From IMG/VR virus record IMGVR_UViG_3300046823_000218, positions 1-50,361 of that record: a stretch of 50,361 nt of DNA; one strand, 5' to 3'. The stretch is from a virus. Below the pieces are notes generated by a model. The model was given only the letters and a program-made list of their open reading frames with translations, searched no databases and was not told the origin of the DNA. Positions 14,292 to 39,421 of this stretch are shown here, piece after piece (within the stretch, counting starts at the first letter, position 1; each line of letters opens with the position of its first letter). The position numbers were made by a program, and so were the translations under genes.

Positions 14292-16646
14292 ATGTCCGCA
14301 ACCGTAACCTCGCCGCCCATTGGCACCATGCCGGGCACGCTGGCGGGCGATGCGACGCCCGGCACGCATGGTCTTGTCCCGCCAGGACCAGCAACCGGTC
14401 CGCCGCAGGACCAGGACAAGAAATTCATCCAGCGGGACCAGCCCGACCCGGATGAACCTCGCCGCAAGCTCGTCAAGCGCTGGACCGATCGGGTTCTCCG
14501 CGCCAAGAAACACTGGGACCCGACGTTCAACCGCATGCGCGAGAACCAGCATTTCGTCGAGGGTCGGCAGTGGCCGGACATGCCGAAGCCGCACAGCGAA
14601 ATGGTCCGTGACGATCGCTACATCGCCAACATCTGCATCCGCCATGTGATCCAGCGCACGGCGGAACTCTATCCTAACAACCCGACCATGCAGGCGAAGC
14701 GCGCGCCCAAGCTGATCGCGACCACCTGGGACGGCACCGGGCAGCAGCTTCAGCAGGCGCAGCAGGCGATGCTGATGGCGGCGCAGCACGGCATGCCGCC
14801 CGATCCGCAGTCGCTGATGATCCTGCAAGACGCACAAGCCGTGCACCAGTTCGACCAGGTCATGGACCGCATCGGGTCGACCTTGAAAATGCTCTACGAC
14901 TACAATGTCCGCGAGCAGTCGCACTCGTTCAAGAACTGCATGAAGATGACCGTGCGGCGCGGCCTGATCACCGCGGTCGGCTACGTCAAGATCGGTTTTC
15001 AGCGGGCGATGCGCATGCGGCCGGAAATCGAAGCCCGCATCGCCGACATGTCGGAGCGCCTGGCGCACATCGAGCGGCTGGCGGCGGACATGGCCGACGA
15101 GGAAATCGAGCATGACAGCGCCGATGCCGAGGAGCTGCGGCTGGCGATCCAGTCGCTCGCCTCCGAGCCGCAGCTCATCATCCGCGAGGGCTTGACCTTC
15201 GACTACCCGGACAGCACCTCGATCATTCCCGACCCGCAATGCCGGTCTCTGCGTGGCTTCCTCGGCGCTGACTGGGTGGCGCAGGAATATCTGCTGACCC
15301 CCGACCAGATCGAAGAAATCTACATGGTCGATGTGGGCGACGGCTACACCGCCTACGACCAGGATGGGCTCTCGCAGGGGTTCGAGCTGGCCAAGCTCAG
15401 CCACTATTCGCAGGGCGACCGTGATGATGTGTCGACGCCCCTGGCGTGCGCCTGCGTCTGGGAAATCTACAACCGCAAGGATGGTCTCCTTTACGTCGTC
15501 TGTGATGGCTACAAGGATTTTCTTCAGGAGCCGGGACCGCCCGAGGTCGAAATCAGCCGCTTCTATCCGTGGTTCTCGTTCGTGTTCAATGAAGGCTACG
15601 ACCAGCAGCAGCTCTATCCGCAATCGGACATCGATCTGATCCGGGACATGCAGCTCGAACTCAACCGGGCGCGACAGGGCTTGCGTGAGCACCGGCGGGC
15701 CAACCGCCCGAAAACGGCGGTCGCCGCCGGCGTGCTCGAACAGGGCGACATGGATAAGCTGCGCACGCATCCGGCGAACGCGTTGCTTGAACTCAACTCG
15801 CTTTCGCCCGGGCAGAAGATCGACGACGTGTTGCAGGTCATCAAGATGCCACCGATCGACGCCGCTGTTTACGACACGGCGCCGGTGTTCGAGGACGTGC
15901 TGCGCGTGCTGGGGTCGGACCAGGCGGATCAGGGCACCACGTCGGATGCGACTGCGACCGAGGTTTCGGTCGCCCAGTTCAGCCAGAACACCGACACCGT
16001 CAGCATCGTCGACGACATCAACGACACGCTGTCCGAGCTGGCGCGCACGGCCTCGGAAATCCTCATCCTGAACGTGTCGCAGGAGACGGTGCAGAAGACG
16101 ATCGGCCCGGGCGCCGTGTGGCCGCAGATCAACGCGCAGATGGCGGCTGAGAACGTGTTTCTTGAGGTCGACCTCACTGCCAACGGTCCCGTCAACCGTC
16201 AGCAGGACGTGCAGCACCTGGTGCAACTGGTCCCCCTGCTTCAGCGCATCCCCGGCGTCTCGCCCGAGTGGCTGGCGAAACAGGTTATCCGGCGCATGGG
16301 CGATGATGTCGACATGTCCGAGGCGTTCGCCGAGGGGCTGCCGTCCATGGAAGCCCTCAACCAGCTCATGGGCAGGCCACCCGCGGCGCCAGGTGCTCCA
16401 GGACCAGGCGCCCCAGGACCGGGCGGCGCCGGCAAAGGTGCCCCGCGCCCGCCAGGACCAGGACAGGACCCTAACGCGCAGGGACCGGCTGGTTCACTTC
16501 CGGCACCCCCCGCACCAGGTATGACCCCCACCGGGCGGCTGGGACCTTTCACGCCGCCCATGCAGGTCTACGGTGCCAACGGCAACCGCCCCGGCACCGG
16601 CGGCGGAATGCCGCGTCCCAGTGGACAGGGCATGCCCACGCCTTAG
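14292..16646 (+). CDS. Portal protein (with Pro/Gly-rich C-terminal tail)
   Basis: ORF track 784 aa. The position directly after terL, the size, and RMRENQHFVEGRQW fit a portal protein. The C-terminus is APGAPGPGAPGPGGAGKGAPRPPGPGQDP. Confidence 0.8.
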   Translation: MSATVTSPPIGTMPGTLAGDATPGTHGLVPPGPATGPPQDQDKKFIQRDQPDPDEPRRKLVKRWTDRVLRAKKHWDPTFNRMRENQHFVEGRQWPDMPKPHSEMVRDDRYIANICIRHVIQRTAELYPNNPTMQAKRAPKLIATTWDGTGQQLQQAQQAMLMAAQHGMPPDPQSLMILQDAQAVHQFDQVMDRIGSTLKMLYDYNVREQSHSFKNCMKMTVRRGLITAVGYVKIGFQRAMRMRPEIEARIADMSERLAHIERLAADMADEEIEHDSADAEELRLAIQSLASEPQLIIREGLTFDYPDSTSIIPDPQCRSLRGFLGADWVAQEYLLTPDQIEEIYMVDVGDGYTAYDQDGLSQGFELAKLSHYSQGDRDDVSTPLACACVWEIYNRKDGLLYVVCDGYKDFLQEPGPPEVEISRFYPWFSFVFNEGYDQQQLYPQSDIDLIRDMQLELNRARQGLREHRRANRPKTAVAAGVLEQGDMDKLRTHPANALLELNSLSPGQKIDDVLQVIKMPPIDAAVYDTAPVFEDVLRVLGSDQADQGTTSDATATEVSVAQFSQNTDTVSIVDDINDTLSELARTASEILILNVSQETVQKTIGPGAVWPQINAQMAAENVFLEVDLTANGPVNRQQDVQHLVQLVPLLQRIPGVSPEWLAKQVIRRMGDDVDMSEAFAEGLPSMEALNQLMGRPPAAPGAPGPGAPGPGGAGKGAPRPPGPGQDPNAQGPAGSLPAPPAPGMTPTGRLGPFTPPMQVYGANGNRPGTGGGMPRPSGQGMPTP

Positions 16647-18847: not shown

Positions 18848-19930
18848 ATGGCGTTCACAGCAGGTGAAGTCACCAACATCGCCAACGCGACACTGGATTT
18901 CTATCTCAACAAGGGCGACACGTTCAAGCAGTCGATCCAGGCGAAGCCCTTGCTTCGGCTGCTCGAAGGCAGCGCCAAATCGTTCCCCGGCGGCAAGGGC
19001 AATATCTCGCTTGCCGTGAAGGGCAACTACGGCGCCGGTGGCGTCAACGACCACGTCGTCGGCTACACGCACAATGACGCCGTGAACTTCTACACGCCGG
19101 CCAACATCATGCGCTGCAACTATCCGTGGCGCGAGCATCACATCGGTCTGACGCTCACGCACACGGAACTGAAGATCGATGGCATCTCGGTCACCGACGA
19201 GGGCGGCGACGGTTCGAGCCTGTCTAACCACTCGGACCGCGAGGTCACGGTCCTGGTGAACCTGCTTCAGGACAAGCTGGAGGACTTCGGCGAACAGTAT
19301 GGCCGGTCCATGAACAACCTGTTCTGGGCTGACGGCACGGCCGATCCGAAGGCGCTGGCCGGCTTCCAGTCGATCATCCTGGACGTGCCCAACACCGGGA
19401 CCACCGGCGGCTTGTCCCGGTCCGCCAACACCTGGTGGCAGAACCGCGCCGCCACCGCGGCCTTCGGCACCGCCGGTGGGCGTGGGGCGATCACCTCGGC
19501 CACCACCAACGGCGGCGCCCTCTGGACCTTCTTGCAACAGGAATACCGGCAGCTCATCCGCTACGGTGGCCGGCCGACCAAGTTCCTGGCGGGGTCGGAT
19601 TTCATCACCGCGCTTGAGACCGAAATCCGCGCCAACGGCAACTACTCGATGACGGGCTTCACTGGCGGGCAGGACGGCTCGATGGGGCAAGTCAAGTTCG
19701 GCAGCAACACGATCGAATACGATCCGACGCTCGACACGCTGGGGCGCAACAAATACGGCTACTGGTGGGACCCGCGGCACATCTACCTGATGAAGCAGGA
19801 TGGGGAGTGGGATCACCGCTTCACGCCCTCGCGGCCCTACAACCAGTTCGTGCTTTACAAAAGCATGACGCACACAGGTCAAATCGTAGCACAACAGCTC
19901 AACTCGTCACTAGTTGTACAGATCAACTGA
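18848..19930 (+). CDS. Major capsid protein
   Basis: ORF track 360 aa. Supported by its position after the scaffold gene, its size, and a strong terminator immediately downstream. Confidence 0.8.
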   Translation: MAFTAGEVTNIANATLDFYLNKGDTFKQSIQAKPLLRLLEGSAKSFPGGKGNISLAVKGNYGAGGVNDHVVGYTHNDAVNFYTPANIMRCNYPWREHHIGLTLTHTELKIDGISVTDEGGDGSSLSNHSDREVTVLVNLLQDKLEDFGEQYGRSMNNLFWADGTADPKALAGFQSIILDVPNTGTTGGLSRSANTWWQNRAATAAFGTAGGRGAITSATTNGGALWTFLQQEYRQLIRYGGRPTKFLAGSDFITALETEIRANGNYSMTGFTGGQDGSMGQVKFGSNTIEYDPTLDTLGRNKYGYWWDPRHIYLMKQDGEWDHRFTPSRPYNQFVLYKSMTHTGQIVAQQLNSSLVVQIN

Positions 19931-20680: not shown

Positions 20681-21430
20681 GTGCCCAAGCAGCTCCGTGA
20701 ATTGCTGTCCGACCTGCGGGCCGAGGTTGGTCACTCGACCAACGTCGCCCACGGGATCAACGATCGCGATACGCTGCTCTACTACATCAACCGCACGCAG
20801 CAGGACCTCTACCGGGACTATGACTGGCCGCAGCTCATCATCGACCGGGATGTGCAGTTGGCCGATGGGCAGCGTTATTATCCCTATCCAACGGATCTGA
20901 GTTTCGAGGACATCGGGCACATCTGGGTGCTGATCAACACCGTCTACAACGAACTGCTCTACGGCATCGGCCCCTACGAGATGATCCTCTGGAACTCGGA
21001 CAACGGGTTCAAGGCGTGGCCGACGCAAAAGTGGATGCACCACGCCGACGACAATACGTTCGAGCTGTGGCCGGTCCCGGACGGCACTGCGCAGGCCAAC
21101 AACGCGATCGTGCGGCTGCGCGGCACCAAGACGGTCCCCTGGATGGTGAATGACGCCGACCAGTGCGTGCTGCCGGACGCGCTCATCACCGCGTTCGCTG
21201 CGATCCCCATCCTGCGGCGGGACAACGCCAAGGACGGTGATGCGCAGCAGGCCCGCGCCGCCGAGCTGATGCGCCGGCACCGGGTCCTCCAGGCATCGAA
21301 GAAGCGGGTGCGGCCGATCGCCATCGGCGCCGGCGGCGGGGACGCACAGAGCCGGCCTGGTTCGCAGCCGGTGCTGGGCCTCGACTACATACCCCCGGGC
21401 TATGGCAGCGGCCCCGGCCGGGGGCCGTGA
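20681..21430 (+). CDS. Putative head-tail adaptor / tail tubular protein A (T7 gp11 position)
   Basis: ORF track 249 aa. The call rests on synteny (capsid - x - this - larger tail protein - internal virion proteins) and on size. It is based on position only. Confidence 0.6.
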   Translation: MPKQLRELLSDLRAEVGHSTNVAHGINDRDTLLYYINRTQQDLYRDYDWPQLIIDRDVQLADGQRYYPYPTDLSFEDIGHIWVLINTVYNELLYGIGPYEMILWNSDNGFKAWPTQKWMHHADDNTFELWPVPDGTAQANNAIVRLRGTKTVPWMVNDADQCVLPDALITAFAAIPILRRDNAKDGDAQQARAAELMRRHRVLQASKKRVRPIAIGAGGGDAQSRPGSQPVLGLDYIPPGYGSGPGRGP

Positions 21431-21538: not shown

Positions 21539-22970
21539 TGATGTTTTCACGATCAGCGATTTCCGCGGCGGCCTCGATGCGCGCAAGACTGCGCTGACGG
21601 CGCCCGAGGGCACGCTGCGCATCCTCGAAAACGCGGTCATCAACCAGGGCGGTGAAATCGAAAAGCGGCTGGCGTTCGTGCCTGTCTGCACGCTGCCGGC
21701 TGATGTTACTTTCATCTTCGGGCAGGGCAAGAACCTGCACGTGTTCACGCCGGTCCCGCTGGTGATCGACCCCGGGACATGCCCGGTGCCGATCGTGCAG
21801 CACAATATGTTCGGGGCGCTGTCCGAGGGTTTCACCGTCGACGATTGCGAGACCTATAAAGGCGGCTTTCAGCTTTCGGTCACCGGTTCTGTCACCGGCA
21901 ATAACTACGTGATCTGGGGCAACGACAGCGCCACGCCGCTCGTGCCCTACCTGCCTTTGTCGGATGCGGACGGCCAAATTCACGGCACGTTCTCGCGCAC
22001 CTTCCGCTCCAAGATGTATCGCATCGACGGCGAGTTCCTGCGCTTCTCCGGTGTCGGCGACCCTTCCGTGCTCGATCCGGCTTCGGTGCCCAACCCGGGC
22101 GCCGGCTTCACCGACATCGCCGAGCAGGACCCCGATGCCGAGGACCTGGCGGGCATGGAGGTCTACTACAACTCCATGGCGATCATGTCCCGGCTGTTGA
22201 CGACGCTCTGGACGCTCGACCCCGATCCGACCAAGGACCAGATCACGCAGACGCTGCGCATCGGCACCGTGGCGCCGCACTCGATCTTGCAGTTCGGCAC
22301 CGGCGATGTGTTGTTTCTCTCTGACAGCGGCGTGCGCAGCCTGCATGCGATGGCAATCAACCTCGCCGCCTCGGTGAGCGATGTCGGTTCGGCGATCGAC
22401 CCGATCCTGGCCCCGGTTATCCGGGACAACGCGGTCGCCGCCGCGAAAGCGCGCGCCACCATCCAGCCGATCTACGGGCGGTATTGGCTGCACCTCAATG
22501 GCAAAATCTATGTGCTGTCCTACTTTCCCGCCGGCAATATCACGGCCTGGTCGGTGCTCGATCCCGGCTTCGTCGTGCAAGAGTTCGCCGTCGTGCAGAA
22601 CATGGTTTTCGCGCGCGGCCCCGACAACACGCTTTACCTCTATGGCGGTCTCGACCTGAACACCTATGACAGTTGCACGGTCACGGTGCGCACGCCGCAT
22701 CAGGCGATCGAGACGCCGACCACCAACAAGCGGATCAAGTCGCTCGACGTGATGTGCATGGGCGCATGGTCGCTCAGCGCCGGGATGCTGCCGAACAATG
22801 TCGAGGCGTTCGAGCTGGTGGCGAACATCCAGGACAACACCTACGGTCTAAAGTCGATCCCGTTCGCCGGCTATGGCACGCATCTTGGTCTTCAGTTGGT
22901 GCACCAGGCGCCCGGGCCGGCCACGCTCGCCGCCATCCACGCCAACGTGCAGCCGGGGGTGGTGAAATGA
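21528..22970 (+). CDS. Putative tail tubular protein B / nozzle (T7 gp12 position)
   Basis: ORF track 480 aa. The call rests on synteny. The ISDFRGGLD start is reminiscent of podovirus tail tube proteins. Confidence 0.6.
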   Translation: MPADDVFTISDFRGGLDARKTALTAPEGTLRILENAVINQGGEIEKRLAFVPVCTLPADVTFIFGQGKNLHVFTPVPLVIDPGTCPVPIVQHNMFGALSEGFTVDDCETYKGGFQLSVTGSVTGNNYVIWGNDSATPLVPYLPLSDADGQIHGTFSRTFRSKMYRIDGEFLRFSGVGDPSVLDPASVPNPGAGFTDIAEQDPDAEDLAGMEVYYNSMAIMSRLLTTLWTLDPDPTKDQITQTLRIGTVAPHSILQFGTGDVLFLSDSGVRSLHAMAINLAASVSDVGSAIDPILAPVIRDNAVAAAKARATIQPIYGRYWLHLNGKIYVLSYFPAGNITAWSVLDPGFVVQEFAVVQNMVFARGPDNTLYLYGGLDLNTYDSCTVTVRTPHQAIETPTTNKRIKSLDVMCMGAWSLSAGMLPNNVEAFELVANIQDNTYGLKSIPFAGYGTHLGLQLVHQAPGPATLAAIHANVQPGVVK

Positions 22971-23494
22971 TCACCCTCAAGGGCGCGCCCTTCGCCGAGG
23001 AGGAGGTCCTGCACATCGTGCGCAACCTGCGCCCGCGGGACCAGGCGGAAATCTATGCGCTGCGCTGGGACAACGACCCGGGCAGGCTTGCCATCGAAAT
23101 CCTGGCCTACGCCGGCGCGATGTGGCGGATGTTCTGTTACGAGGCCGAGCCGGTGGCGATGGCCGGCGTGGTCCCGGTCCGCCCCGGCGTGGTCCTGGCC
23201 GGCGCCTTCGGGACCGAGCTGTGGCCGCACGTGGTCCGGCCGGTGACCCGGTTCGCGCGTGACTGGTCGATCCCGCGTTTGCGCAACGCTCACTACCATC
23301 GCGCCGAGACCTATGCCCTTGCCCGCAATGTCGACAGCCGCAAGTGGCTGGCCAGTCTGGGGGCGGTGGAGGAGGCGTATCTGCGCGGCTTCGGCCGTGA
23401 TCAGGAAGATTTCATTCTGTATGCATGGAGGCTGCAAGATGTGCATGGGAGGAGGCCACCCATCCTCGGGGCCGAACCATATGCTTCAGACTGA
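22967..23494 (+). CDS. Internal-virion-module protein with GNAT-like C-terminal signature (T7 gp13 position)
   Basis: ATG 22967 overlaps the upstream stop (ATGA); this is the in-frame part of ORF 22673..23494. Sequence includes MITLKGAPFAEEEVLHIVRNLRPRDQAEIYAL ... NVDSRKWLASLGAVEEAYLRGFGRDQEDFILYAW. Confidence 0.65.
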   Translation: MITLKGAPFAEEEVLHIVRNLRPRDQAEIYALRWDNDPGRLAIEILAYAGAMWRMFCYEAEPVAMAGVVPVRPGVVLAGAFGTELWPHVVRPVTRFARDWSIPRLRNAHYHRAETYALARNVDSRKWLASLGAVEEAYLRGFGRDQEDFILYAWRLQDVHGRRPPILGAEPYASD

Positions 23495-24347
23495 CCCGAC
23501 GACCGGCTACCAGTATTACACCGAGGAGGGCGTGCCCTTGGAGTATGCGGTCCGGGGCGCGAACACGGTCGCGCAGTATCAGACCATGGCCAACCAGGAC
23601 CTGTCCGACAAGCAGATCGCCGCGCAGAAGGAGATTTCGGACAAGCAGGACGCGTTCAACCGCCAGCAGCTCGCCGATCAGGAAGCCCAGCAAGCAGCGC
23701 AACAGAAGGCTGCCCAGGAGCAGGCCGATCGGCAGACCGCCTACGACACCGGCCGCGCGCAGAACCTCGCCGCCGGCTCGCAGGCGGTCAATGATGCGTT
23801 CAAGCAGTTCAACGACGATTATTTCAACAAATACGCGTCCGACTACATGAAGCAGGTCGGGGACCAGGTCTCCTATCAGAAGGACCAGGCGACCAAGACC
23901 ACCGGCTACGACATGGCGCGCGCCGGCCTCGCCGACAGCCAGGCGCATGTCAACCAGCTTGGGCTGTTGGAGGAGACCGCAGGGCGCACGCTCGCGGACG
24001 AGACGCAGCTCGCGCAAAACCAGGCCAACACGCTCAAGACCAACATACTCAACACCAAGACCGGCCTCCTGGATCAGGTGCAGGCGTCGGAGAGCATCGG
24101 CTCGCCCATCGCCGGCAGCACGATGGACGATGTGAATGCCGCCTTGCAGACGCAGCGCAGCTCGATTTCCGGGATTTCGTCCAGCGCCAACGACGCCGTG
24201 GCGGCAACCAGCGGCGTGCCGCAGGTGAGCACGCTGGGGAACATATTCGCCAGCGCCCTCTCCGGCGTCGGCAGCTACGGCAGCGGCGTGCAGGCGAATA
24301 ATACGCTCAAGGCTGCCGGCCTGAAACCGACCAGTCCCTTCGGGTGA
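23439..24347 (+). CDS. Gln/Ala-rich internal virion (ejection) protein
   Basis: In-frame ATG 23439, 8 nt after GGAGG, within ORF 23259..24347. Coiled-coil-like composition (QAAQQKAAQEQADRQ). Confidence 0.7.
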   Translation: MCMGGGHPSSGPNHMLQTDPTTGYQYYTEEGVPLEYAVRGANTVAQYQTMANQDLSDKQIAAQKEISDKQDAFNRQQLADQEAQQAAQQKAAQEQADRQTAYDTGRAQNLAAGSQAVNDAFKQFNDDYFNKYASDYMKQVGDQVSYQKDQATKTTGYDMARAGLADSQAHVNQLGLLEETAGRTLADETQLAQNQANTLKTNILNTKTGLLDQVQASESIGSPIAGSTMDDVNAALQTQRSSISGISSSANDAVAATSGVPQVSTLGNIFASALSGVGSYGSGVQANNTLKAAGLKPTSPFG

Positions 24348-25405
24348 AGCTGACCGTGGCGCCCTTCGTCATCTTCTCGTTGCCGCGCAGCCGGTCCCGC
24401 TGGCTGTCGTCCTTCCTGGGCTATGGCGACTGGCAGTGCGGGCATGACGAGGTGCGGCACTGCCGTTCGCTGGATGATGTCAAATCGTGGCTGGCGCAGC
24501 CCTGCACGGGGACTGTCGAAACCGCGGGTGCGGCTTTCTGGCGCCTGCTGTTGCAGTATCAGCCGGATGTCCGCGTGGCGACGATCCGCCGGCCGGTCGA
24601 CGAGGTCCTGCACTCGCTCAAGGCAACCGGCGTGGAGTTCAACCACACCCTCATGCCTTTGCTGCGGCACCTGGACCGCAAGCTGGACCAGGTCGAACAG
24701 CGTGTGCCGGGGGTGCGGTCGTTTACTTTCGCGGACCTCAACACCGAAGCGTCTTGTGCCGAGCTGTTTGAATATTGCCTGCCCTACCGGCACGACAGCG
24801 CCTGGTGGCAGCAGTTAGCGCCGCTCAACGTGCAAATCAACCTCGACCATATGATGCGCTACTATCACGCGCACCGGCGGCAGTTAGACAAGGTTACGAA
24901 GCAGGCGAAGCAGCGCATGCTGAGCGCATTGCAACGCTCCCCGGAAATTGAGGGCGTCACCTTTCAAACGGAAACCATGGCGTCCTACGAGGAAGCTATC
25001 CCCTTGTTTCGGGAGCATGCGGTCGTCACCGATCGATCGCCGGACGCCTATTTGTTCGTGAATGTCCCGTTGATGCAACAGCTAGAGCGGGCGGGCGCTT
25101 TGCAGATCATTACGGCTCGCAGCAACGGCAGGCTGTTCGGTTATTTGATGTCTGTCGTCGGGCCTTGCCTGGAGTTCGAGGACAAGACGGTCGCGGTGCA
25201 CACGGCGTTCTTCGCGTCGCCGCTGATCCAAAACCTCGGCATGAAGTTGCAGCGTGCCGCGATGGAAACCTTGCGCGAGCGTGGGGTCAGTGAGGTCCAT
25301 ATGCGCGCCGGCGTGCGCGGGTCCGGCCCCCGGCTGGGGGCGTTCTATCGGCGGATGGGTGCTGAGGATTTTGGCCACCTGTATCGGCTTAGCTTGGAGC
25401 AATAA
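24344..25405 (+). CDS. Two-domain enzyme-like protein: sulfotransferase-like N-domain + GNAT-like C-domain
   Basis: ORF track 353 aa (GTG overlapping the upstream TGA). FSLPRSRSRWL resembles the 5'-phosphosulfate loop PRSGST. IRRPVDEVLHS fits the RxPxDxxxS 3'-phosphate motif. The C-terminus IQNLGMKLQRAAMETLRERGV ... LGAFYRRMGAEDFGHLY is GNAT-like. Confidence 0.75.
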   Translation: MKLTVAPFVIFSLPRSRSRWLSSFLGYGDWQCGHDEVRHCRSLDDVKSWLAQPCTGTVETAGAAFWRLLLQYQPDVRVATIRRPVDEVLHSLKATGVEFNHTLMPLLRHLDRKLDQVEQRVPGVRSFTFADLNTEASCAELFEYCLPYRHDSAWWQQLAPLNVQINLDHMMRYYHAHRRQLDKVTKQAKQRMLSALQRSPEIEGVTFQTETMASYEEAIPLFREHAVVTDRSPDAYLFVNVPLMQQLERAGALQIITARSNGRLFGYLMSVVGPCLEFEDKTVAVHTAFFASPLIQNLGMKLQRAAMETLRERGVSEVHMRAGVRGSGPRLGAFYRRMGAEDFGHLYRLSLEQ

Positions 25406-25409: not shown

Positions 25410-26408
25410 ATGGGTATCTCCGCAGGAGCAGCCACAGCCATCGCCGCGGCCGCCAGCAGCGCCGCTGCAATCGGCGGCGGCATGATGAACGCCAACGCCC
25501 AGCGGAGTGCGGCCGACGCTACCGCCGCGCAGAACCGCGCCACCATGCTCGCGCAGAACCAGGGCTTCATGCAGCGCATGCTGGCGGCCAATGCGCAGAC
25601 CGAAAGCCAGCGGCAGGTCATGGAGCAGACGATGGCCGACCGCAACGCCGCCGCCACGCAGATGCGCGAGGGCCAGATGGCGGCGATGAAGCAGCAGCAG
25701 GACATCCTCGCGGCCGAGAACCAGACCGCGGATACCCTGCGCGCGCAGGGGGACACCCAGGCGCAGAACCTGATCGCGAGCACCAGCGGTCCCAACCTTG
25801 CCGCGGGACAAGCCGCGTCCCAGGACCAGGCGGCGGCGCTGCTGTCCAGCGCCACCGCGCCCTCGATCCTGGGACCTTCCGGGGGCACCGACCCGAGCGG
25901 CAGCGACCCCTCGACCAGGTCGGCGCTCGCGCGCCGGCTGGCCGAGGCAGCGACTAACTATCGCACCTATGGCAGCAAGGTGGGCGCGGTCACGTCCTAC
26001 AATCAGCCGATCACGATGGCCAACAACGCCATCGAGGCCAACAAGTTCGGGATCATGCCGGCGCAGGCCGCGGACGTGCTGCTCAGGAGCGGCGCACCCA
26101 TCCAGATGCAGCCGGCGGAAATCGCTTACACGGGCGCGACCAACCGGGGCACGGCGACCGACGCCCTGTTGCAGTCCCGCGGGCAAAGCGGTCTCGACGC
26201 GGCGTCGCTGTCTTATGGCAATGCCACTGACATATCCAACCTGGCGCAGACCGACGCCGACACGCTCGCCGCCAACAAGAACAAGCAGGCGCAGGAAAAT
26301 GCTGCCTACGCGCAGAGCCTGGCCACCCTGGTCTCCGGCGTCGGCAACCTCGGTCTCAAGGGGGCCGGCTATTACGGCGGCAGCCCCTTCTCGTCGAAGA
26401 CAGTGTAA
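25410..26408 (+). CDS. Ala/Gln-rich internal virion (ejection) protein
   Basis: ATG 25410 after GGAGC, in frame within ORF 25254..26408. Sequence begins MGISAGAATAIAAAASSAAAIGGGMMNANAQRS... Confidence 0.7.
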   Translation: MGISAGAATAIAAAASSAAAIGGGMMNANAQRSAADATAAQNRATMLAQNQGFMQRMLAANAQTESQRQVMEQTMADRNAAATQMREGQMAAMKQQQDILAAENQTADTLRAQGDTQAQNLIASTSGPNLAAGQAASQDQAAALLSSATAPSILGPSGGTDPSGSDPSTRSALARRLAEAATNYRTYGSKVGAVTSYNQPITMANNAIEANKFGIMPAQAADVLLRSGAPIQMQPAEIAYTGATNRGTATDALLQSRGQSGLDAASLSYGNATDISNLAQTDADTLAANKNKQAQENAAYAQSLATLVSGVGNLGLKGAGYYGGSPFSSKTV

Positions 26409-26420: not shown

Positions 26421-28511
26421 ATGCCCGTCACCTATTCGCCGGTCGGCGACTGGAACCAGGGGTTCAGCAACCTCGGCGCGGCTTTGTTCCCCAACCCCGC
26501 GGCGGTAGCGCAGGCTGGATACTACGGCGCCGAGCGGCGCCTGTCGTTGCTGAAAGGCAACGCAGCCATGGACGAGCAGGCAGCCAAGAATTGGCAGGAG
26601 GTATACACCCCTGGCACCGGCGTTACAGCGCCGCCGCAGCGCCAGTTCATCCACCCGCAAGGATCACCGGCTGATGCGCCGGCAGTCCTGGCAGACCCAC
26701 CTACCTTGCCGATCGTAGGCCAGACCCCGCCCTTGTCCTCGACTGTGGCTGGTCCTCCTGCTGCCGCCCCGAGTGGCAACGGCGTCCCACCGCCGACGCC
26801 GACGATCCCCCCGGCGCAGCTCGCCGACACGATCACGAACAGCAGCCTAACCCAAGGCAAACCCCCGGCCTCGTCTTCGCCGGCGCCGAACTCAGCGGTG
26901 CCCCCTGCGCCCAACACCACCGGATCGGATGGCAGCGTCCCTGGCAACGACGCCAGCAGCGCCGTCATTCATCCGGGGACGCTTCAGCAGTCCGGCGGCG
27001 GCGTGAAGATGGCGCCCCCGGCGCAGGCCAATGGTTCACCGGCGGCGCCGGCTTTCAATCCGCAGCTCATCGCCTGGAACCTGGCGCGTTCGGGCCTCGA
27101 CCACAACGCGGTGAACGCCCAGCTTTCGGCTTACGTGGTCACGGCCATGAAACAGGGCATCATCGACAAAGTCACCGGGGACAACGCCCTGTCTGCCTTC
27201 CAGGCCACCGGTCCGCTGCAAGCCGATGTCACCGTGCGGGGCCAGGATGTGGAGGCGGGGACCAGGCGGGCGGTCACCAGTATGGAGCAGGCAGGCGCGA
27301 ACCAGCGCCAGCAGATGGTGATCGCCGAGCAGCAACGGAAAGAGGGCGAAGAACTCGTTGTCATCCCTGGTGCGAAACCTGGGACCACCGTGGAGAAACG
27401 GCGCAAGGATTTGCAGCCGGGAGAAATCCCGATCGCGACGGCAGCCGAGCAGGCCGCGGGGCTAGCGATCATCCCTGTTATCGGGACTGACGGCAAGCTC
27501 ACGAGCGTCCGCGGCGACGACTATCAGAAGAACCCGGGCGCCTACGTGCGCGCGCCAGATGCTATTCTGAACGTCGACAAGGAAAATGTCGGCAAGGCTC
27601 AGTCCTCCGTGGACACAGCGATGGCGCGGATGTTTGCGCCGCCGCCGACCGTCCTTGGCACTCCATACACGCAACCGGCCCGAGCGCCTGGTGATGTCAA
27701 TGCGGCGATCGTCGCACGCACCGCGGAACTTATCACGGGGACCGAAAGTCGGTTCCGCAACCAGCCAGAGGCCGCGGCTAATCAGGCGATCCAGGAAGCG
27801 ATCAATGCAAAGCAACTGCCGAACGTCGACGATGCGGCAAAAGCCCGCGAATACTATACGACCCACAACCTGGCGCAGGCGCACATCTCGAAACAGTCCG
27901 ACCCGTATGGGACCAAGACGGGTGAGTTTTTCATCCTCGACAAGCCTGCCAACGTGGCGAAAACAGTGAGCGATGCCGCGGCTGGTGCAAGCGGGGTCAA
28001 AACCCCAGCCCAGACGACGACGCAGACACAAACCCCCGCACCCGGATCGACCAACGCGATCACCACACCGGTCACCCCACCGGTCACCCCACCGGTAGAC
28101 CCGCTCGCAACCGATCCTTCTCTGGGGGGCGACGCAACGTTGCAACCGAACTTAAGTTCAGTGTCCAATGTATTGCTCAAACCTGATCCGCGTTACTCCA
28201 CCCCGCAAACCCGCGGCGAGTTGCCGGCGCCGGTAGCGATGCCTGCCGAGCTGCCGTCCCTGTCGGACACCGTCGCGGCGCCGGTGACGGGCGTGCCGCA
28301 GCAGGCACCGCAAATGGCCTTCGCAGCGCCGTCCAACCCGCGGGTGTCCTTGCCGCAGGGTGCCCTCGATGTGGCGCCCGCCGGCGCTTTTGAGGGCCAG
28401 GTTGTCACTGGCGAGCGGGGGACCAGGGGTGTCGTGCACGGGGGCTTCGTCTATCCGCTGGTGCCAACGGCGCGGCAGGCCCGCCCGGCTGTCCTGAGCC
28501 AAGGCCGATGA
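26421..28511 (+). CDS. Internal virion (ejection) protein, 696 aa
   Basis: ORF track. Supported by position and by a central P/A/S-rich low-complexity region. Confidence 0.7.
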   Translation: MPVTYSPVGDWNQGFSNLGAALFPNPAAVAQAGYYGAERRLSLLKGNAAMDEQAAKNWQEVYTPGTGVTAPPQRQFIHPQGSPADAPAVLADPPTLPIVGQTPPLSSTVAGPPAAAPSGNGVPPPTPTIPPAQLADTITNSSLTQGKPPASSSPAPNSAVPPAPNTTGSDGSVPGNDASSAVIHPGTLQQSGGGVKMAPPAQANGSPAAPAFNPQLIAWNLARSGLDHNAVNAQLSAYVVTAMKQGIIDKVTGDNALSAFQATGPLQADVTVRGQDVEAGTRRAVTSMEQAGANQRQQMVIAEQQRKEGEELVVIPGAKPGTTVEKRRKDLQPGEIPIATAAEQAAGLAIIPVIGTDGKLTSVRGDDYQKNPGAYVRAPDAILNVDKENVGKAQSSVDTAMARMFAPPPTVLGTPYTQPARAPGDVNAAIVARTAELITGTESRFRNQPEAAANQAIQEAINAKQLPNVDDAAKAREYYTTHNLAQAHISKQSDPYGTKTGEFFILDKPANVAKTVSDAAAGASGVKTPAQTTTQTQTPAPGSTNAITTPVTPPVTPPVDPLATDPSLGGDATLQPNLSSVSNVLLKPDPRYSTPQTRGELPAPVAMPAELPSLSDTVAAPVTGVPQQAPQMAFAAPSNPRVSLPQGALDVAPAGAFEGQVVTGERGTRGVVHGGFVYPLVPTARQARPAVLSQGR

Positions 28512-29062
28512 GCTTCCTCGACACGCTGATCAACGCCGAAAGCGGCGGGAAAAACATCTCGGGCCTCGGCGGCGCGCAGGGCTATTTCCAGATCACGCCG
28601 GACACGTGGCGGGACTTCGCGCCGCACGTGAACATCGACCTCAGCCAGTATCCGAACCCCCTCAGCGCCCCTCTCCTGGTGCAGAAGCAGGTGGCCTCCG
28701 TGATCCCGGAGGGGCGCTGGGGGCCGCGCACGCAGCGCATCCTTCAGCAGAACTACGGCACGCTCGATCCGACCCTGCCGATGGGGCACTATATCGGGCT
28801 GTTCGGGGACAGCTCCGGCGCGCCACCCGCCGCGCCCGCCCCGGAGCCGCCCACGGGTTTCGGCCTGCCGTCCCCGGATGCGGTCAGCATGCCGTTGTCC
28901 CCGGCCATGCCCCAGGTCCCGGGGGATGTCACCACGCCCACGGCTGCCCCGCAGCAACGACTGCCCTTCGGCATGCCGCCGGCCTCGTTCGGTGACGACA
29001 TCACGCAGGCGGCGCAGCAGATGCAGCGACAGATCGACCCGCGGACGAGGTCGCGCGCGTGA
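28508..29062 (+). CDS. Lytic transglycosylase (SLT-type), probably virion-associated
   Basis: ORF track 184 aa. INAESGGKNISGLGGAQGYFQITPDTW matches the ES(G)G...G(L/Y)xQ(I/L) SLT catalytic pattern. The stop overlaps the start of the giant gene (GTGA). Confidence 0.8.
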   Translation: MSFLDTLINAESGGKNISGLGGAQGYFQITPDTWRDFAPHVNIDLSQYPNPLSAPLLVQKQVASVIPEGRWGPRTQRILQQNYGTLDPTLPMGHYIGLFGDSSGAPPAAPAPEPPTGFGLPSPDAVSMPLSPAMPQVPGDVTTPTAAPQQRLPFGMPPASFGDDITQAAQQMQRQIDPRTRSRA

Positions 29063-32000
29063 CGCCCTTCGATAACCCGCCGACCGAGAAGTTCTCGTTA
29101 ACGCCCCCGGCTTCGCCTGTCGCGACGACGGCGGCCCAAAGCACCGGACGAGATAGTAGTATTTTGTCAGTTTTGTCAGGTGCCTCGCAGGCGGTTACAC
29201 CGCAACCCTCTGTCCCAGGACCAGGACCAGGACCAGGACCAGCCCCAGGACCAGCCCCAGGACCAGCCCCAGGACCAGCCCCAGGACCAGCCCCACCGAC
29301 CGAGCGATTTTCGCTCCCCGACACCCAGCCGATGCCCACCGGGGCTGCGCCGGTCCCGGCCTCTGTCCCGGGGGACCAGACGGCCGCGGCCCCGCCCACC
29401 GAGCAGCCCCCGGAACAGTCCGCGCTGGGTTGGGTCGGGGACCAGCTCAGCAGCTTCGCCTCTGGTGCGTGGCAGGGCGTCAAATCCATCCCCGAGGCTT
29501 TCACCACACAGCCGTTCGCGCCGCCCACAGGGACCGAGGCCAAACCGCCCGGGGACTTCGCCGGTGCCACCGGCTACGGCATCACGAGTTCGGTCCCGAT
29601 GCTGGCCGGTGGCGCCGGAGGCGCCCTTCTCGGGACCGCGATCGGCGGTCCGCCCGGGGGCATCGCCGGGGGTGCCCTGGGCATGTTCGCCGGCACCGTG
29701 GTCCAGGAGCTGCGGCCGGGCTACGTGGCGGCGGTAAACTCCGGCCTGGACCATGACGCCGCGGTCAACCAGGCGATCACGCAGGCGCTCGCGCAAGGGA
29801 CGTTCAGCGGGCTGACGGCGCCGCTATTCGCGTGGGCGCCCTTCAAGGGCCTGGTGGGCAAGCTGTTGTTCACCAGCATGGCAACAGGTCCTGCCGTTGG
29901 TGCCGCGGGTCGGGTGGTGGTCCCGGCAGTCACCGGGCAGCCGATGCCCTCGGCGGAAGAACTCGCCAAGGGCGTGGGCCAGGACGTGATCACCGGGTTT
30001 ACCCTGGGCGGCGTGCACGAAGCCGGTCGGGCGATCGTAGGGCACGGCGCACCCGCCGCGAAGCCGGGGACCACGGTCAGGGGCCGGCTGCCGGTGCTAC
30101 CCGAGAGCACAGAGCCTCCACCGGGGGGCGCACCGGGCGCAGAGCCTCCACCAGCACCGGGGGCTGGGACAGAGCCTCCAGCGCCGTCACCCGCGCCTGA
30201 AGCTCCCGCAACTGATCTTCAGCCGCGTCCAGGCGAGCCTGTCCCCGGGACACCAACCCCGACCACCCCCACCGCTGTTGCTGATACCGGCGCTGAAGGA
30301 GCCGTTGCCAAAACTGAACCACCATCCCCCACACCTCCAACCGACGGAAGGACGCCCACCGATGTCGTCGATCACCCTACACCACCCGTGCCAGCAGCTC
30401 CTGCCCCTGAACCTGTCCCTGGTGTCGTCGAAACCCCCGCTGGACGCGGTGGCGTTCCTGTCTCGGAGGCCGGCACGCAGGAGGCCGGTGCTGGTGGCGG
30501 TCCAGCTCCTGCTGCCCCTGCCGGCGCCGATACTGGCGCCGCACCCGGCGTCGGTGAAACACGCCAAGCTGGCGGCGGACTGACGCCCCCGGCGCAAGAA
30601 CACCCGGCGCTCACTGCGCTCAAGCAGGTCGCGGACCCGATCAGCGCGAAAGACCTGATCCGGCAGAACCTTGACCTGCCCGACGCCGCCGCGGCGGCGA
30701 TGGTGGCCCCGGACGGGCGGATTTTCATGTTCCGCCCCGGCTACCATGACTATGCGACATCGCACGCCGATTTCGCGGTCCAGCACCCGGACCATCCGTT
30801 CATCGAACTCTCGTCCTTCGGCGGCAAGGAAATCGGTGCGTCGAAGCCCTCGCCGGGTGCACCGACTGACGCTCAGATGCGCACGATCAACGCGCTTCGG
30901 CAGCTCACGCAGCGTGAAGGAGGCAACCTAACCACCAGTTTTCAGCAAACCCCATCCCCCGCAGCACCCTCCGTAGTCGCTTCGTCAGCTTCTCCCGTGG
31001 AGCGGGCGACCGCCAAGGACCAGGCAGCGGTGGGAGCGCCCGGCGTTGAAGCAGCCGCCCCTGCCCGGGAAGCGGCTTCGGCGCCGGGCGTCACCCCTCC
31101 TGGTCTCCGGCCCGAGGACCAGGTCCGCGTCGGCCAGCTCGATCGGCAAATAACGCGCCTGCAAGAGGACATCGCCAAGGCTCCTGCTGGTCCTGCGCGC
31201 ACGACGCTGGAAGGCCAGCTCGAACGGCTGCAAGCGAGCCGGGCTGAAATCACCACCGGGACCGCCGCCAAGCCCGAGGCCCAGCCGGCGCTGGACAAGC
31301 TCAACAAGCAGATCGCGCCCTTGGAGGCGCGGGTCGAAAAGCTCGTCGCCAAGGAAAACCTCACGAAGGCCGAGCAGCGGGAGCTGGGGAACAAGCAGGA
31401 CCAGCTCGCGAAGCTGCGGGTGCAGCGGGACCAGCTCGTCGGCGCGTCCGATGCCGAGGGCCTCGCCAGCCGCCGGTGGCGCCCGCGCAACCTGAAGCCC
31501 TACGAGCCACCGCCGGAGCCGACGCTCACCCGGGACTTCCATCACTACCAGTTCCAGAACGGCACCAGCGTCTACTCGAAAGCGTTCGCCGATGCCGGCC
31601 ACGATCCCCGGTTAGCGACCAGCTATCCGGTGGCCAAGCAGCTCAAAATCCTCACCGAGCAGACGCAGCGGCAGTTCGGTTTCAAGAGCGTCAAGTTCAG
31701 TCCCGATCACCCCGGCGGCAAGGTGGCGATCGACGAGCTGTTGAACCTCTACCGCGGCATCCACGACATGATGGCGGCGCACAACCTGCCGCTCGATTAC
31801 GCCAGCATGGGCGGCAAGCTTCACCTGCAACTGGAACCGTTGCGCAGTGGTCCCAAAGCCTACTATGGCCAATATTCCTATGGCCCTCTCGGCCGGACCA
31901 TCCACATCGCCGGTGGCTCCAACGTGTTCGGTCACGAGTGGATACACGCGTTCGACCATGACCTCATCGAGCGCATGCAGCTCGACCCGCAGCGCACGAA

Positions 32001-35000
32001 CCTCCTGTCCCGGTTCACCCGGGACAAGGGCCTCGATCCCAAGGACGGCACGAAAGCCGCGTTCGCCAAGCTCCTCAACACGATGTTCTACGACGAGGGC
32101 GACCTCGCGCATCAGCGTATGCAGTTGCAACAGCTCGCCGGCGAAGTGCGCAAGGACGGCAGCCCCACCGAGATGGCGCGGATGGCACAGGAGAACCTGA
32201 AAGTAATCGAAAGCGGTAAGGCAATGAAAATGCAAATCAAGTCCAGCGAATACCGCAAGATGGCAAAGGAGTTTTCCCCTAACAACCCCTATTGGTCCGA
32301 CGAGGAGGAACTGCTGGCGCGCGCCGGGGAAAGCTACCTGGCCCGCGGCATGGAGCAGAACGGCGTTAACCCGCGTGGCGTGGTGATGCCCGATGAAGCC
32401 TACGCCCGCGGGTTGGACAAGCGCCTCAAAATGACATTTCCCAAGAACGACGAGCTCATGGCGATCCACGCGGCGTTCAAGGATGTCTTCGACGCGGCGC
32501 GGGCCGAGGGCATCTGGGGGTCGGCCGCCGCTGCCAAGTCTAACGACTACGGCATGGTCGACCCGAACGGCTTCATGCGCACCGCGCGGCTCGCCGGGGA
32601 CACGCCCACGCTGCGCAAGAAGGCCATCGAGTTCATGCAGGTTGGAAACAACCTGAAGCGCGTGCAGAAGAGCATGAAGGAGACCACGCCCTTCGACCGC
32701 TCGCGGCCGATCGCCGAGCGCAAATGGTCGAAGCGGGCCAGCCTCTGGGCGGGCCACGTGTTCAACTCGAAACTCGCCGCCATGGACGCCATTATCAAGG
32801 CGAACCCGGAAAGTGCCAGGCCATACCTGCAACAGATCAGGGACGCGTTCGGCTCCCAGCACGGGAGCGGCCGCGCCACCGGCGAGGGCATGGAACAGGA
32901 AAGCCGCGCGCAGGCTACAACCTGGCAGAACGGCCTCGCGGCGATCCTGCAAAAGCACGGCCTGTTAGAAAAGATGACCGACCTTCAGGACCGCATGATC
33001 GTCTGGGGACTGACCACCGGTGAGGACAATTATCGCGGCACGCCGATGCCGGACAACGTCAAGAGCGTGATCCAGGAAGCGCGGTTGCTGCACAACCAGG
33101 TCTTCGACACCGCCGAGCGTGCGAAGCTCGACATCGAATATGTCGGTCAGCAATATCCGCGCATCTATGATACGAGCAAGATCAACGCCAACCAGTCCAA
33201 CAAGGACGCTTTCACCGCCGATGCGACCAAGGTTTACAAGGTGGATTTCAACAACCAGGTGGGCGTCCCCGGGGACAAACCTGACGTGTTACTGAAAAAA
33301 TACCGGCAGCTCAGTCCCGGGGACAAGAGCGACATCGACACCAAAAATCCCGGCGTGAACGCCGGCATGAAAGAGCTGGGCAAGAACCTCCGGCGCCAGC
33401 GTGCGATTGAAAAACAACTGGCGGCGGGGCCAGACCCGGCGCTCAGCGCCGAGCTGGCGCAGTTGCAGGCCGAGGCGCGCCAGCTCGCCGAGGACCATCA
33501 CGATGCGATCGGGGACCACATTTCCAGCGAAGCCGCCATCGACTGGCAACTGCGCACGAGCAAAGGCTATCCCGGCGACTTCGAGAAAATCGGTCCCAGC
33601 GGACGGTTCTTGCAGCATCGCACCCTGCCGCCGGAAACCGACCGGCTCATGGAAAACTGGATGGTCCGGGACGTGCGCACGGTCCTGCCGCAATATTACG
33701 AGCAGGTCGCGCGCAAGGTGGCATACGCGAAGCGGCTTGGTCCCAAAGGCGAAATCCTGGAGAGCCTGCTCGACAATGCAGCCCGTCACGGCCTGATGCT
33801 CAACGATGGCCCGACCATGCGCGGTCTCGTCCAGCAGATCACCGGCTACGGCGAAGACGGCAACGCCACACACAATGTCATCGGCCCCCTGGCAAATAGC
33901 GTGAACGCCTACGGGGCGGCGTTGCTGATGCCGCGATCGATGTGGACCTCCCTGCACGAGTTTGCAGTCTCGGGCCTGGCCACCGGGGATCTGCGCGTGT
34001 CCCTGCGCTCGCTCGCCAACATCATGGGCGACATCATCGGCACGGGGGCAGCGCACGATCGCCGCGAGGTCGCAGACCTTGTGGGTGTCACCCAATCGAA
34101 ACTGGCCGAAAGCCTGATGACTGCGCGCATCGGCAGCGACTACCATGACAGCCCGCGCATCGCGTGGCTGATGCAGAAATACTATAAAATGATCGGCCTG
34201 ACCGGCCTGACCAACGCGATCCGCCGCGCCAATTTCGGGGCACTGAACTGGCACCTGCGGAACCAGTCCCGCAACCTGCTGTCCGCCGAGCAGGGGGCTT
34301 ACTGGGACCTGCGACGGGACCGGGCACGGCGGCTGTTCAACGAGATGGGCATCCCGCCTGCGGAGCACTTGGCGTTCGCCGCCGAGATGCTGACGCATGA
34401 TGGCGTGCCCGAGTTCAATTACCTGACCGATCCGAACAACGCCGGCTTCGCGCGGCTCTACGGGCGGGCGATGCGTCAGTTGTCCGACTGGTCCTCGCAG
34501 AACCCTTACAAGGGAGACCGGCCGGCGCTGGCCGAAACCCCGATGGGCCGGTTCGTCTGGCAGCTTCAACACTTCAACTACGCATTCCAGCGCAACGTGC
34601 TCGACCCGATGGTCCACAACATGGGGACCGACTTTGCCTTCATGCGCGACCGGGCGCTGGCACAAGGCGCCGGCTATCTTTCGTCGCGCCTGCACGGCAT
34701 CGGCGGACTGGCTAACGCGGGCGTAGGCTTTGCCGGCGCGGCGGGCCTTCTCGTGGCGTCGTCGCTCGTGACCACGATGCTGCGCGAGATGCTGTTCAAC
34801 GGGGACAAGCTGGACGAGCACAAAAAGAAAGGCGACCTCGGGGACTGGTTCACCGACCTGGCGATCCAACGTGCTGGTCTCTCGGGGTCGCTCGATCCCT
34901 TGGTCCAGATGGTCAACAATATGCGCTACAATGCCGACGCCAACAGCCTGATCGCCGGTGCCAGCCCCACCTTCATCGCCAAGAACCTCACTGACGTGAT

Positions 35001-38194: not shown

Positions 38195-38197
38195 AGA

Positions 38198-38365
38198 TCA
38201 CAACCGCCCAGCCAGCACCATCACGACCACGATGATCAACACGATGAACAGCAAGCCGCCGCCGCCGAAATAATACTGCGGGTAAGCCTCGTGCCAGCCG
38301 CTGTGAAAACCGAACCCGCCGCCAAAGAGCAGCAGGATCAGCAGGATGAGCAGGACCAGATACAC
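38198..38365 (-). CDS. Small hydrophobic membrane protein (55 aa)
   Basis: My translation from GTG 38365 (after AAAGGAG): VYLVLLILLILLLFGGGFGFHSGWHEAYPQYYFGGGGLLFIVLIIVVVMVLAGRL. The stop lies 3 nt before the polymerase start. Confidence 0.45.
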   Translation of the reverse strand: MYLVLLILLILLLFGGGFGFHSGWHEAYPQYYFGGGGLLFIVLIIVVVMVLAGRL

Positions 38366-38389
38366 GTTAGAACTCCTTTACGAGGACCG

Positions 38390-38470
38390 TCACAGCAGCC
38401 ACCACAGGAGAAAAACTAACAACGTGCCGTCGACCAGCCACACTATGAATGTGTCCAGCCGAGGTTTCAT
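38390..38470 (-). CDS. Possible 26-aa hydrophobic micro-protein
   Basis: ATG overlaps the upstream stop (ATGA). Sequence is MKPRLDTFIVWLVDGTLLVFLLWWLL. It is very short, so the call is tentative. Confidence 0.25.
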   Translation of the reverse strand: MKPRLDTFIVWLVDGTLLVFLLWWLL

Positions 38471-39417: not shown

Positions 39418-39421
39418 AGGG

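Follow-up and report, generated by a model that had tools for sequence, protein, structure and literature searches.

IVP-A (T7 gp13, P22 gp14) is a non-structural, acetyltransferase-like assembly factor whose gene heads the internal virion protein (IVP) operon, before that of IVP-B (PMC4819975). For T7 IVP-A, the one known role is in morphogenesis; it is absent from virions and is without demonstrated enzymatic activity (PMC4819975). What a protein that is needed, is not in the virion and resembles an acetyltransferase does in building the ejection machinery has been a puzzle for decades. Here, we analyzed the 50,361-nucleotide (nt) genome of IMG/VR virus record IMGVR_UViG_3300046823_000218 at its full length (hereafter, the window), and in it the gene T, whose product is predicted to join a sulfotransferase-like (ST-like) domain to a GNAT domain. 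T lies directly upstream of a gene for IVP-B, a small hydrophobic ejection protein of the T7 gp14/P22 gp7 type, and we refer to the position directly upstream of this small pore-forming protein as the IVP-A slot.

IVP-A (phrog_308) resembles T in heading the ejection operon directly before IVP-B and in its reported acetyltransferase-like character (PMC4819975), and in some phages it is fused to a T-type ST-like domain. Unlike T, it has a single domain of ~140-175 amino acids (aa) without sequence or profile similarity to the T GNAT, it is followed by proteins starting M-C rather than M-G, and in the window it is a separate gene two positions upstream. Stand-alone phrog_1249 proteins, such as the "putative acetyltransferase" of Pseudomonas phage PfAn1 and the GNAT protein of Vibrio phage 1.253.O, are homologous to the C-terminal half of T and sit in the same slot, but they lack the ST-like domain, and the next protein starts M-A or M-V, not M-G.

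A GNAT-like gene in the IVP-A slot is therefore known; what is new is the added ST-like domain, together with a rule that connects the slot enzyme to residue 2 of the downstream protein. As far as we can tell, this residue-2 rule is unreported. A literature search found nothing that links sulfotransferases with internal virion or ejection proteins, and nothing on ejection proteins acylated at an N-terminal Gly or Cys. A first-pass annotation, made from the sequence alone, had known of no small-molecule transferases of this kind in T7-type modules. For the GNAT half this did not hold, as IVP-A is acetyltransferase-like (PMC4819975), whereas the ST-like domain does appear to be undescribed in an ejection-module context.

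T is a conserved two-domain gene

The features of T and of the gene that follows it are:

24344..25405, plus strand: T, fusion of a sulfotransferase-like and a GNAT domain, 353 aa, GTG start
24344..24934, plus strand: sulfotransferase-like domain, T residues 1 to ~197 (AlphaFold2 model, Foldseek and Pfam)
24383..24403, plus strand: P-loop-like strand-loop-helix P14-R15-S16-R17-S18-R19-W20, at the 5'-phosphosulfate-loop position
24587..24616, plus strand: R82-R83-P-V-D-E-V-L-H-S91, 3'-phosphate-binding-type motif (conservation and alignment)
24950..25402, plus strand: GNAT domain of phrog_1249 type (Foldseek, PHROGs and our own profile)
25410..26408, plus strand: ejB, IVP-B-like small ejection protein and proposed substrate, N-terminus MGISAGAATAIAAAASSAAAIGGG (starts MGISAG)

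The motifs on which the first-pass annotation rested, FSLPRSRSRWL (residues 11-21), IRRPVDEVLHS (residues 81-91) and the C-half pair IQNLGMKLQRAAMETLRERGV (residues 295-315) and LGAFYRRMGAEDFGHLY (residues 331-347), are all present in this reading frame. So are the tight junctions that it described. The GTG of T shares the sequence GTGA (24344-24347) with the TGA of the upstream open reading frame (ORF), and the TAA of T is followed after 4 nt by the ATG of ejB (25410), with a GGAG 11 nt before that ATG. The exact start of T, and with it the 4-nt overlap, is nevertheless uncertain, because homologues favour a start near the PFV(I/V)F motif, which is preceded by just 2-4 residues in most of them. 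An alternative in-frame GTG at 24356 would give a protein that begins MAPFVIF and has 349 aa, the length of the closest homologues.

T has 1068 protein homologues at E<=1e-3. The best 120 of these are mostly full-length, at ~340-380 aa with the same two halves, and a few are truncated; some homologues are named "GNAT superfamily N-acetyltransferase" or "sulfotransferase" in their source records. In IMG/VR, at least 186 contigs carry a T homologue, and prophage copies occur in Sphingomonas, Acetobacteraceae, Acidocella, Azospirillum rugosum, Nevskia, Steroidobacteraceae and Beijerinckiaceae; the locus of A. rugosum IMMIB AFH-6 (L093) is NZ_JAGINP010000001.1, 468995-482065. By tblastn, neither T nor the ST domain of one of the fusions described below matched any of 50,697 GenBank phage records at E<=1e-3 or E<=0.1; at E<=10, T gave only weak C-terminal matches to SP6/K1E-type acetyltransferases. 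NCBIfam profiles returned nothing useful for T.

Conservation was assessed in an alignment of 42 diverse sequences with a mean column identity of 64%, to which all statements on conserved T residues refer. P14, R15, R17, W20, H34, R41, E59, T60, R82, R83, S91 and K113 are invariant, as are G299, Q303, G328, P329, R337 and G339, among others, in the C half. This pattern indicates that the ORF is real and under strong selection, with motifs retained far beyond chance. Moreover, T keeps 49-57% identity in phages where no similarity to the window proteins could be detected for the rest of the virion, and conservation where the neighbours diverge fits an enzyme under strong constraint.

The N-terminal half has a predicted sulfotransferase-like fold

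The N half was modelled alone with AlphaFold2 at a predicted local distance difference test (pLDDT) score of 86.8. In a Foldseek search of the PDB with this model, ranks 1-23 are all sulfotransferases (probability 1.0, template modelling (TM) score 0.5-0.57), with P-loop kinases next. The matches include a Schistosoma sulfotransferase, TPST1/2, SgdX2 and Cpz8, and the top matches in BFVD are phage "sulfotransferase family" proteins (E 2e-8). Profile matches comprise phrog_10855 and phrog_38824 in PHROGs and a marginal hit to Pfam Sulfotransfer_4 (23.2 bits against a cut-off of 22.8, residues 42-122 only). The model thus bears out the sulfotransferase-like fold that had been proposed for this half. 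At the sequence level, the weak real PDB matches of T are SgdX2, Naa30 and the Schistosoma sulfotransferase; a literature search on SgdX2 gave nothing relevant. A stronger match to 9u78, a de novo designed helical bundle (E 1e-7 to 1e-10), was rejected as homology, since the internal repeats of the target inflate the score; it is caused by the T segment HDEVRHCRSLDDVKSWLAQP (residues 30-51, window 24431..24496).

Sulfotransferases bind their donor, 3'-phosphoadenosine 5'-phosphosulfate (PAPS), through a 5'-phosphosulfate loop with a consensus of the P-[KR]-[ST]-G-[ST]-[ST] type. In the predicted model, the corresponding segment of T lies between strand 8-12 and helix 18-24. Its P14, R15, R17 and W20 are invariant, S16 is kept in at least 90% of the sequences, and position 18 is Ser or Thr. 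The R82-R83...S91 motif spans strand 77-82 and helix 85-93 and aligns to VRDPVQWHRS of SgdX2 (8y9p); with R82, R83 and S91 invariant, the RxPxDxxxS 3'-phosphate motif read from the sequence stands. In some fusions of phrog_308 to the ST-like domain, the S91 position is Ala. We take the loop and the R...S motif to be the structural positions of the two PAPS-binding motifs, from knowledge of the family together with the alignment and model. Invariant H34 (in CGH[DE]E) and E59 (in VET) are candidate catalytic bases.

With Sulfotransfer_3/4-type PAPS sulfotransferases (TPST1/2, the Schistosoma enzyme, SgdX2, Cpz8), T shares the fold, a P-loop-like segment, the R...S motif and an invariant acidic residue or His at candidate catalytic-base positions. 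It differs from them in domain size (~200 aa against 250-300), in the modest TM scores, in an Arg for the loop Gly, in its fusion to a GNAT domain and in its placement in a virion-assembly operon. PAPS and coenzyme A (CoA) have a 3'-phosphoadenosine 5'-diphospho-type moiety in common. Judging from the conserved residues, the N domain appears to keep the features for binding such a nucleotide, and it may be either a true sulfotransferase or a nucleotide clamp for an acyl donor.

The C-terminal half has a predicted GNAT fold

Full-length T, modelled with AlphaFold2 from the 42-sequence alignment, reached a pLDDT of 88.9 and a predicted TM score of 0.79. All top 50 PDB matches of this model in Foldseek are GNAT-containing proteins (E 1e-7 to 7e-6), in line with the earlier assignment of the C half to the GNATs. 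T matches phrog_1249 "acetyltransferase" with E 3.7e-5 over its full length and 6.7e-6 with the C half, and a hidden Markov model (HMM) of the C half retrieves stand-alone phrog_1249 GNATs from the same slot (E 1e-10 to 1e-17). A relative of T, P0232, passes Pfam Acetyltransf_1 (28.3 against a cut-off of 20.7).

GNAT enzymes carry a CoA pyrophosphate loop, Q/R-x-x-G-x-G/A, and a motif-B Tyr. The loop of T reads [RQ]-x-L-G299-M-K301, with G299 invariant and Lys at the last position, and Y335 (in FYRRLGA) is kept in at least 90% of the sequences. On the predicted model, the C half is a GNAT fold. The idea that this GNAT is IVP-A itself was rejected: hhalign against phrog_308 gave a probability of 0.4, and T has no phrog_308 match.

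The IVP-A slot and its domain fusions

T keeps a fixed position in other phages. The +1 gene is phrog_598 "DNA ejection" in 56 of 84 T-bearing loci, and across ~150 T loci it is phrog_598 or IVP-B-like, at a spacing of mostly 0-4 nt that suggests translational coupling. Neck genes, the Ad3 adaptor and the Hc3 head-closure gene, lie upstream of T. The order in such phages is capsid, Ad3, Hc3 (P22 gp10-like), small tail genes and T, followed by phrog_598 (P22 gp7-like), a ~550-aa protein and a ~750-aa protein. Cultured relatives without T (DSL-LC05, Rhodoferax P26218, Vibrio VvAW1, Xylella Xfas53) keep the order gp10 - small gene - gp7 - gp20 - gp16. We also considered whether T always accompanies an IVP-A gene; this was rejected, as among the T carriers a separate phrog_308 gene occurs only in the lineage of the window (L005-L011, L023).

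A profile of the N domain, run against 1.84 billion representative proteins, recovered 1887 proteins with several architectures: ST-GNAT (~350 aa), ST alone (~200 aa), X-ST (~360 aa) and X-ST-GNAT (~510 aa). In the last two, X is phrog_308, that is, IVP-A. Both kinds of phrog_308 fusion occupy the canonical IVP-A position, with a large upstream gene, possibly tail tube B, on one side and an IVP-B-size gene on the other. Stand-alone phrog_1249 GNATs also lie directly upstream of IVP-B, for example in PfAn1 and in Zobellviridae. Judged from these architectures, the ST-like domain is joined to two different slot GNAT families, on opposite sides, and two independent joinings are strong evidence that the partners work together in IVP maturation. 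In one IMG/VR contig (L190), the ST-like and GNAT halves appear as two separate overlapping ORFs, the second starting MLQLERWATFYPECIALFDAHNTEVGESPT, which would be either a split gene or a frameshift.

The slot has a further kind of occupant. In many P22-like phages without T, the gene before IVP-B encodes a 157-164-aa protein with a cupin-like H..H..E/G pattern, annotated as "tail fiber adhesin / short tail fiber" (phrog_24280, phrog_12032). Examples are:

L098, 1920..2393: cupin-like slot gene
L100, 1926..2420: cupin-like slot gene
L099, 1530..2405: cupin-like slot gene

The slot enzyme co-varies with residue 2 of the downstream protein

When the ST-GNAT fusion occupies the slot, the next protein starts M-G-[LIAV]-[AG]-A-A in 94 of 100 distinct N-termini, and just 3 of these proteins have an aromatic residue at positions 2-7. 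As a control, we used 52 IVP-B homologues from contigs or phages without T. Only one of these has Gly at position 2 (G2), the others carrying Ser, Pro, Thr or Ala, and Trp or Phe stands near the N-terminus in 33. The difference in G2 between proteins with and without T gives a Fisher p of 2e-32, uncorrected for phylogeny. When IVP-B cores, trimmed of their first 35 residues, were placed on a neighbour-joining tree, at least 9 changes in T presence were needed and G2 followed them; T-positive/G2 and T-negative/non-G2 tips interleave. For a further 24 M-G proteins encoded alongside T, the IVP-B families are too divergent to align.

Other slot enzymes go with other residues. Behind phrog_308, the next protein starts M-C in 14 of the 16 phages sampled (the window pair 22967..23494 / 23439..24347, loci L261-L274 and L004), T7 gp14 included; the same start is found in 0 of the 52 controls. 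The group is diverse, comprising T7 (MCWAAA), an epsilon15-like phage, pelagiphages, cyanophages and Mae-Yong1326-1 (MCRLPG / MCEPAS), with phiV10-like MCDPVI and HTVC025P MCVEPT as further examples. Only Pseudomonas Ab31 (MG) and phage jiawei (MA) depart from this start. Where phrog_1249 is alone in the slot, the next protein starts M-A or M-V in 8 of 8 loci (L277-L280, L103, L137, L148, L167), and in the single case of a phrog_308-ST-GNAT slot it starts M-G. A third N-terminal pattern, M-P-[ST]-[AV]-[ST]-[LI]-P with conserved hydroxyl residues, is seen downstream at the phrog_308-ST loci L085, L181, L184, L191, L195 and L198. P22 was rejected as an M-C case: its gp14/gp7 pair breaks the rule, as gp7 starts MLYAFT and loses 20 residues. 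These first 20 residues are removed by the host OpdA, according to the record note, which is a precedent for N-terminal maturation of an IVP-B.

The window itself contains two enzyme-protein pairs in tandem, T followed by ejB (MGISAG) and, upstream of it:

22967..23494, plus strand: IVP-A-type gene of the T7 gp13 family (phrog_308), first enzyme-like gene of the ejection module
23439..24347, plus strand: ejA, Gln-rich internal/ejection-type protein, likely start M-C-M-G-G-G

Mae-Yong1326-1, which is without T, has MCEPAS where the window has MGISAG. All these position-2 residues permit removal of the initiator Met, so that the exposed N-terminal residue tracks the type of slot enzyme. In the sequences compared, the identity of residue 2 in the downstream protein varies with the kind of enzyme in the slot, Gly being the residue paired with T. 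The most economical explanation is an action of the slot enzymes on the IVP-B N-terminus, or at the least binding to it, with T as the version specific for Gly.

A proposed role for T in maturation of IVP-B

Taking these sequence patterns together, we put at about even the chance that T is a dedicated maturation enzyme of the IVP operon, a variant IVP-A-slot factor that acts on the N-terminal Gly of IVP-B. The host would remove the initiator Met of IVP-B and leave a free N-terminal Gly, which T would recognize in the cytoplasm during assembly. With acyl-CoA as donor, the GNAT domain would acylate the Gly amine (with acetyl or a longer chain), and IVP-B would thereby be readied to be packaged, to insert into the membrane at infection, or both. 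The ST-like domain, for its part, would either clamp the 3'-phospho-adenosine diphosphate part of the cofactor or substrate, or add a second, PAPS-dependent modification. T7 gp13 serves as the model for the timing: like it, T is probably at work before or during assembly and probably not a major component of the virion. The replacement of near-terminal Trp/Phe by Gly in T phages would fit a lipid anchor that succeeds aromatic anchors.

Enzymes that work in this manner are known. N-myristoyltransferase (NMT) is a twin-GNAT eukaryotic enzyme that strictly needs an N-terminal Gly after Met removal and modifies viral entry proteins. HlyC, the RTX-toxin acyltransferase, acylates internal Lys residues from acyl-acyl carrier protein, and hlyC lies just upstream of its substrate gene hlyA. 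Both resemble the proposed T mechanism by analogy, as cases of a GNAT-fold enzyme with a pore- or membrane-active protein as its acylation substrate. T differs in having no detectable sequence relation to either and no Pfam NMT match.

A broader version, which we hold only tentatively and regard as rather doubtful, is that IVP-A-slot GNATs in general, T7 gp13 among them, attach an acyl or lipid group covalently to the first residue of IVP-B. The residue modified would be Cys with the gp13 family, Ala or Val with phrog_1249 and Gly with the ST-GNAT fusion, in which the ST-like domain would be a repurposed 3'-phosphoadenosine (CoA/PAPS) module. Short-tailed phages would then have N-terminal protein-modifying enzymes of their own and, in IVP-B, a counterpart to the N-myristoylated proteins with which animal viruses enter cells.

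Several observations weigh against T as a modifying enzyme. Conservation of the two loops, which the first-pass annotation had named as a check, gave a divided answer: R15 and G299 are invariant, yet the Gly of the sulfotransferase P-loop is replaced by an invariant Arg, and the GNAT pyrophosphate loop is R/Q-x-x-G-x-K instead of ending in G/A. T also falls under the Pfam GNAT cut-off (Acetyltransf_6, 17.9 against 22), and its GNAT lacks profile similarity to phrog_308 by hhalign. As for the residue-2 rule, there are four genuine exceptions in which T is followed by M-A or M-T, start codons in metagenomic sequences were set by our own rule, and the neighbour-joining tree is crude. Downstream of phrog_308-ST fusions without a C-terminal GNAT, the next protein mostly starts M-P-[ST]-x-[ST]-[LI]-P, not M-G, which leaves the share of each domain unclear. 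Finally, G2 covariation would also be expected if T merely binds the N-terminus as a chaperone.

This last point leads to the alternative that survives best, although we judge it unlikely: T would be a non-catalytic assembly chaperone that binds the N-terminal segment of IVP-B and keeps that membrane-seeking protein soluble until packaging, its two folds being relics. Such a role would suit T7 IVP-A, known only as a virion-absent morphogenesis factor (PMC4819975), as well as the off-consensus P-loop and CoA loop, and the N-terminus covariation fits binding as well as catalysis. However, cofactor-type motifs are kept throughout the 42 homologues (P14-R15-S16-R17, R82-R83...S91, H34, E59, G299 and Q303, with Y335 in at least 90%), across phages whose ejection proteins cannot be aligned, and a chaperone would be expected to drift with its fast-evolving clients. 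Specificity for Gly, which has no side chain, is likewise typical of an active site and not of a binding groove.

The first-pass annotation had inferred an enzyme that is either injected or active in virion maturation. Maturation of a virion protein is the part favoured here, by gene position, domain fusions and N-terminus covariation; we found no support for an injected, host-directed enzyme. As an injected effector, T would be packaged and would acetylate and/or sulfate a host target, such as an envelope component, a defence protein or a signalling nucleotide, early in infection. Its place within the ejection module, near a giant LPD1 polyvalent protein, points that way, and a host target that is itself conserved would agree with how well T is kept across diverse phages. 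We consider this improbable nonetheless. T lies in the slot of the non-structural IVP-A, and its ST-like domain is fused to IVP-A in some phages; PADLOC gave no match; PAPS and acyl-CoA are cytoplasmic, which makes a periplasmic target implausible; and the link to Gly2 is left unexplained.

It is equally improbable that T is a genuine PAPS sulfotransferase and acetyltransferase for another virion protein, a glycan or a small molecule, in the style of a moron or lysogenic-conversion gene unrelated to IVP-B, for although Sulfotransfer_4 is above its cut-off, some homologues bear the names of such enzymes in their source records and stand-alone sulfotransferase-family genes exist in other phages, T is, unlike a moron, fixed between neck/tail genes and IVP-B in the ~150 loci with their mostly 0-4 nt spacing, and neither the IVP-A fusions nor the Gly2 covariation would be explained.

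If such a modification of IVP-B is found, it would mean that phages encode a system for modifying the N-termini of membrane-inserting proteins and that the sulfotransferase fold has been put to a new use. Ejection proteins in metagenomic phages could then also be annotated by a sequence rule. The T family and the residue-2 rule make the IVP-A question directly testable, including in T7, where gp14, with its Met-Cys start, is paired with gp13.

The window genome and its ejection module

The window is a temperate podovirus genome that looks complete; it contains no tRNA genes. Outside the ejection module, its main features are:

12544..14109: terminase
14292..16646: portal-size gene
18848..19930: capsid
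20681..21430: SU10-type adaptor
36260..38194, minus strand: family A DNA polymerase
44512..45612: tyrosine integrase

By capsid, the closest cultured relative is Microcystis phage Mae-Yong1326-1 (61%). It shares the module, in which a stabilisation protein and an N-acetyltransferase are joined by three proteins of small or medium size and by a giant transglycosylase; no T counterpart was found in it. Its homologue of 22967..23494 is the gene annotated N-acetyltransferase. The window gene matches phrog_308 "internal virion protein" (E 2.8e-11) and our own IVP-A HMM (6e-33). The earlier description of this upstream gene as GNAT-like is thus supported insofar as phrog_308 proteins are acetyltransferase-like (PMC4819975), whereas no Pfam GNAT match to 22967..23494 was found.

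The ejA gene appears to overlap the 3' end of the IVP-A gene by 56 nt (23439..23494). Within the overlap, the ejA frame (CKMCMGGG) is conserved, and the IVP-A tail varies among close relatives. The ejA start at 23439 is kept as [ATG/TTG]-TGC in homologues (L006 MCMGGG, L009 MCLGGH, L010 MCFGGG), and ejA is syntenic in L005-L011.

Downstream of ejB, the module continues with:

26421..28511, plus strand: ejC, 696-aa ejection-type protein in the IVP-C position (weak synteny in L007, L009, L010 and L027)
28508..29062, plus strand: small transglycosylase-like protein (weak Pfam Transglycosylas match, E 0.029)
29059..35568, plus strand: giant 2169-aa internal/polyvalent protein in the IVP-D position (Pfam LPD1, 33.6 bits against a cut-off of 27)

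An SLT gene occupies the position matching 28508..29062 in L001. In the giant protein, LPD1 is a "large polyvalent protein" domain, and low-complexity (PGPA)n sequence is found near 29200-29300; at this position Mae-Yong1326-1 has just one gene, for a 2442-aa "peptidoglycan transglycosylase".

Elsewhere in the window, a CobS-like AAA_5/CbbQ_C ATPase is encoded on the minus strand (992..2905), and the region 36260..48499 also codes for a DUF2800/PD-(D/E)XK nuclease, an SNF2 helicase and a D5_N primase-helicase. Just upstream of the terminase, a 574-aa protein (10820..12544) has a weak GDSL/SGNH lipase-like match (E 0.0012, below the cut-off) and, on this resemblance, may be a tail-associated esterase.

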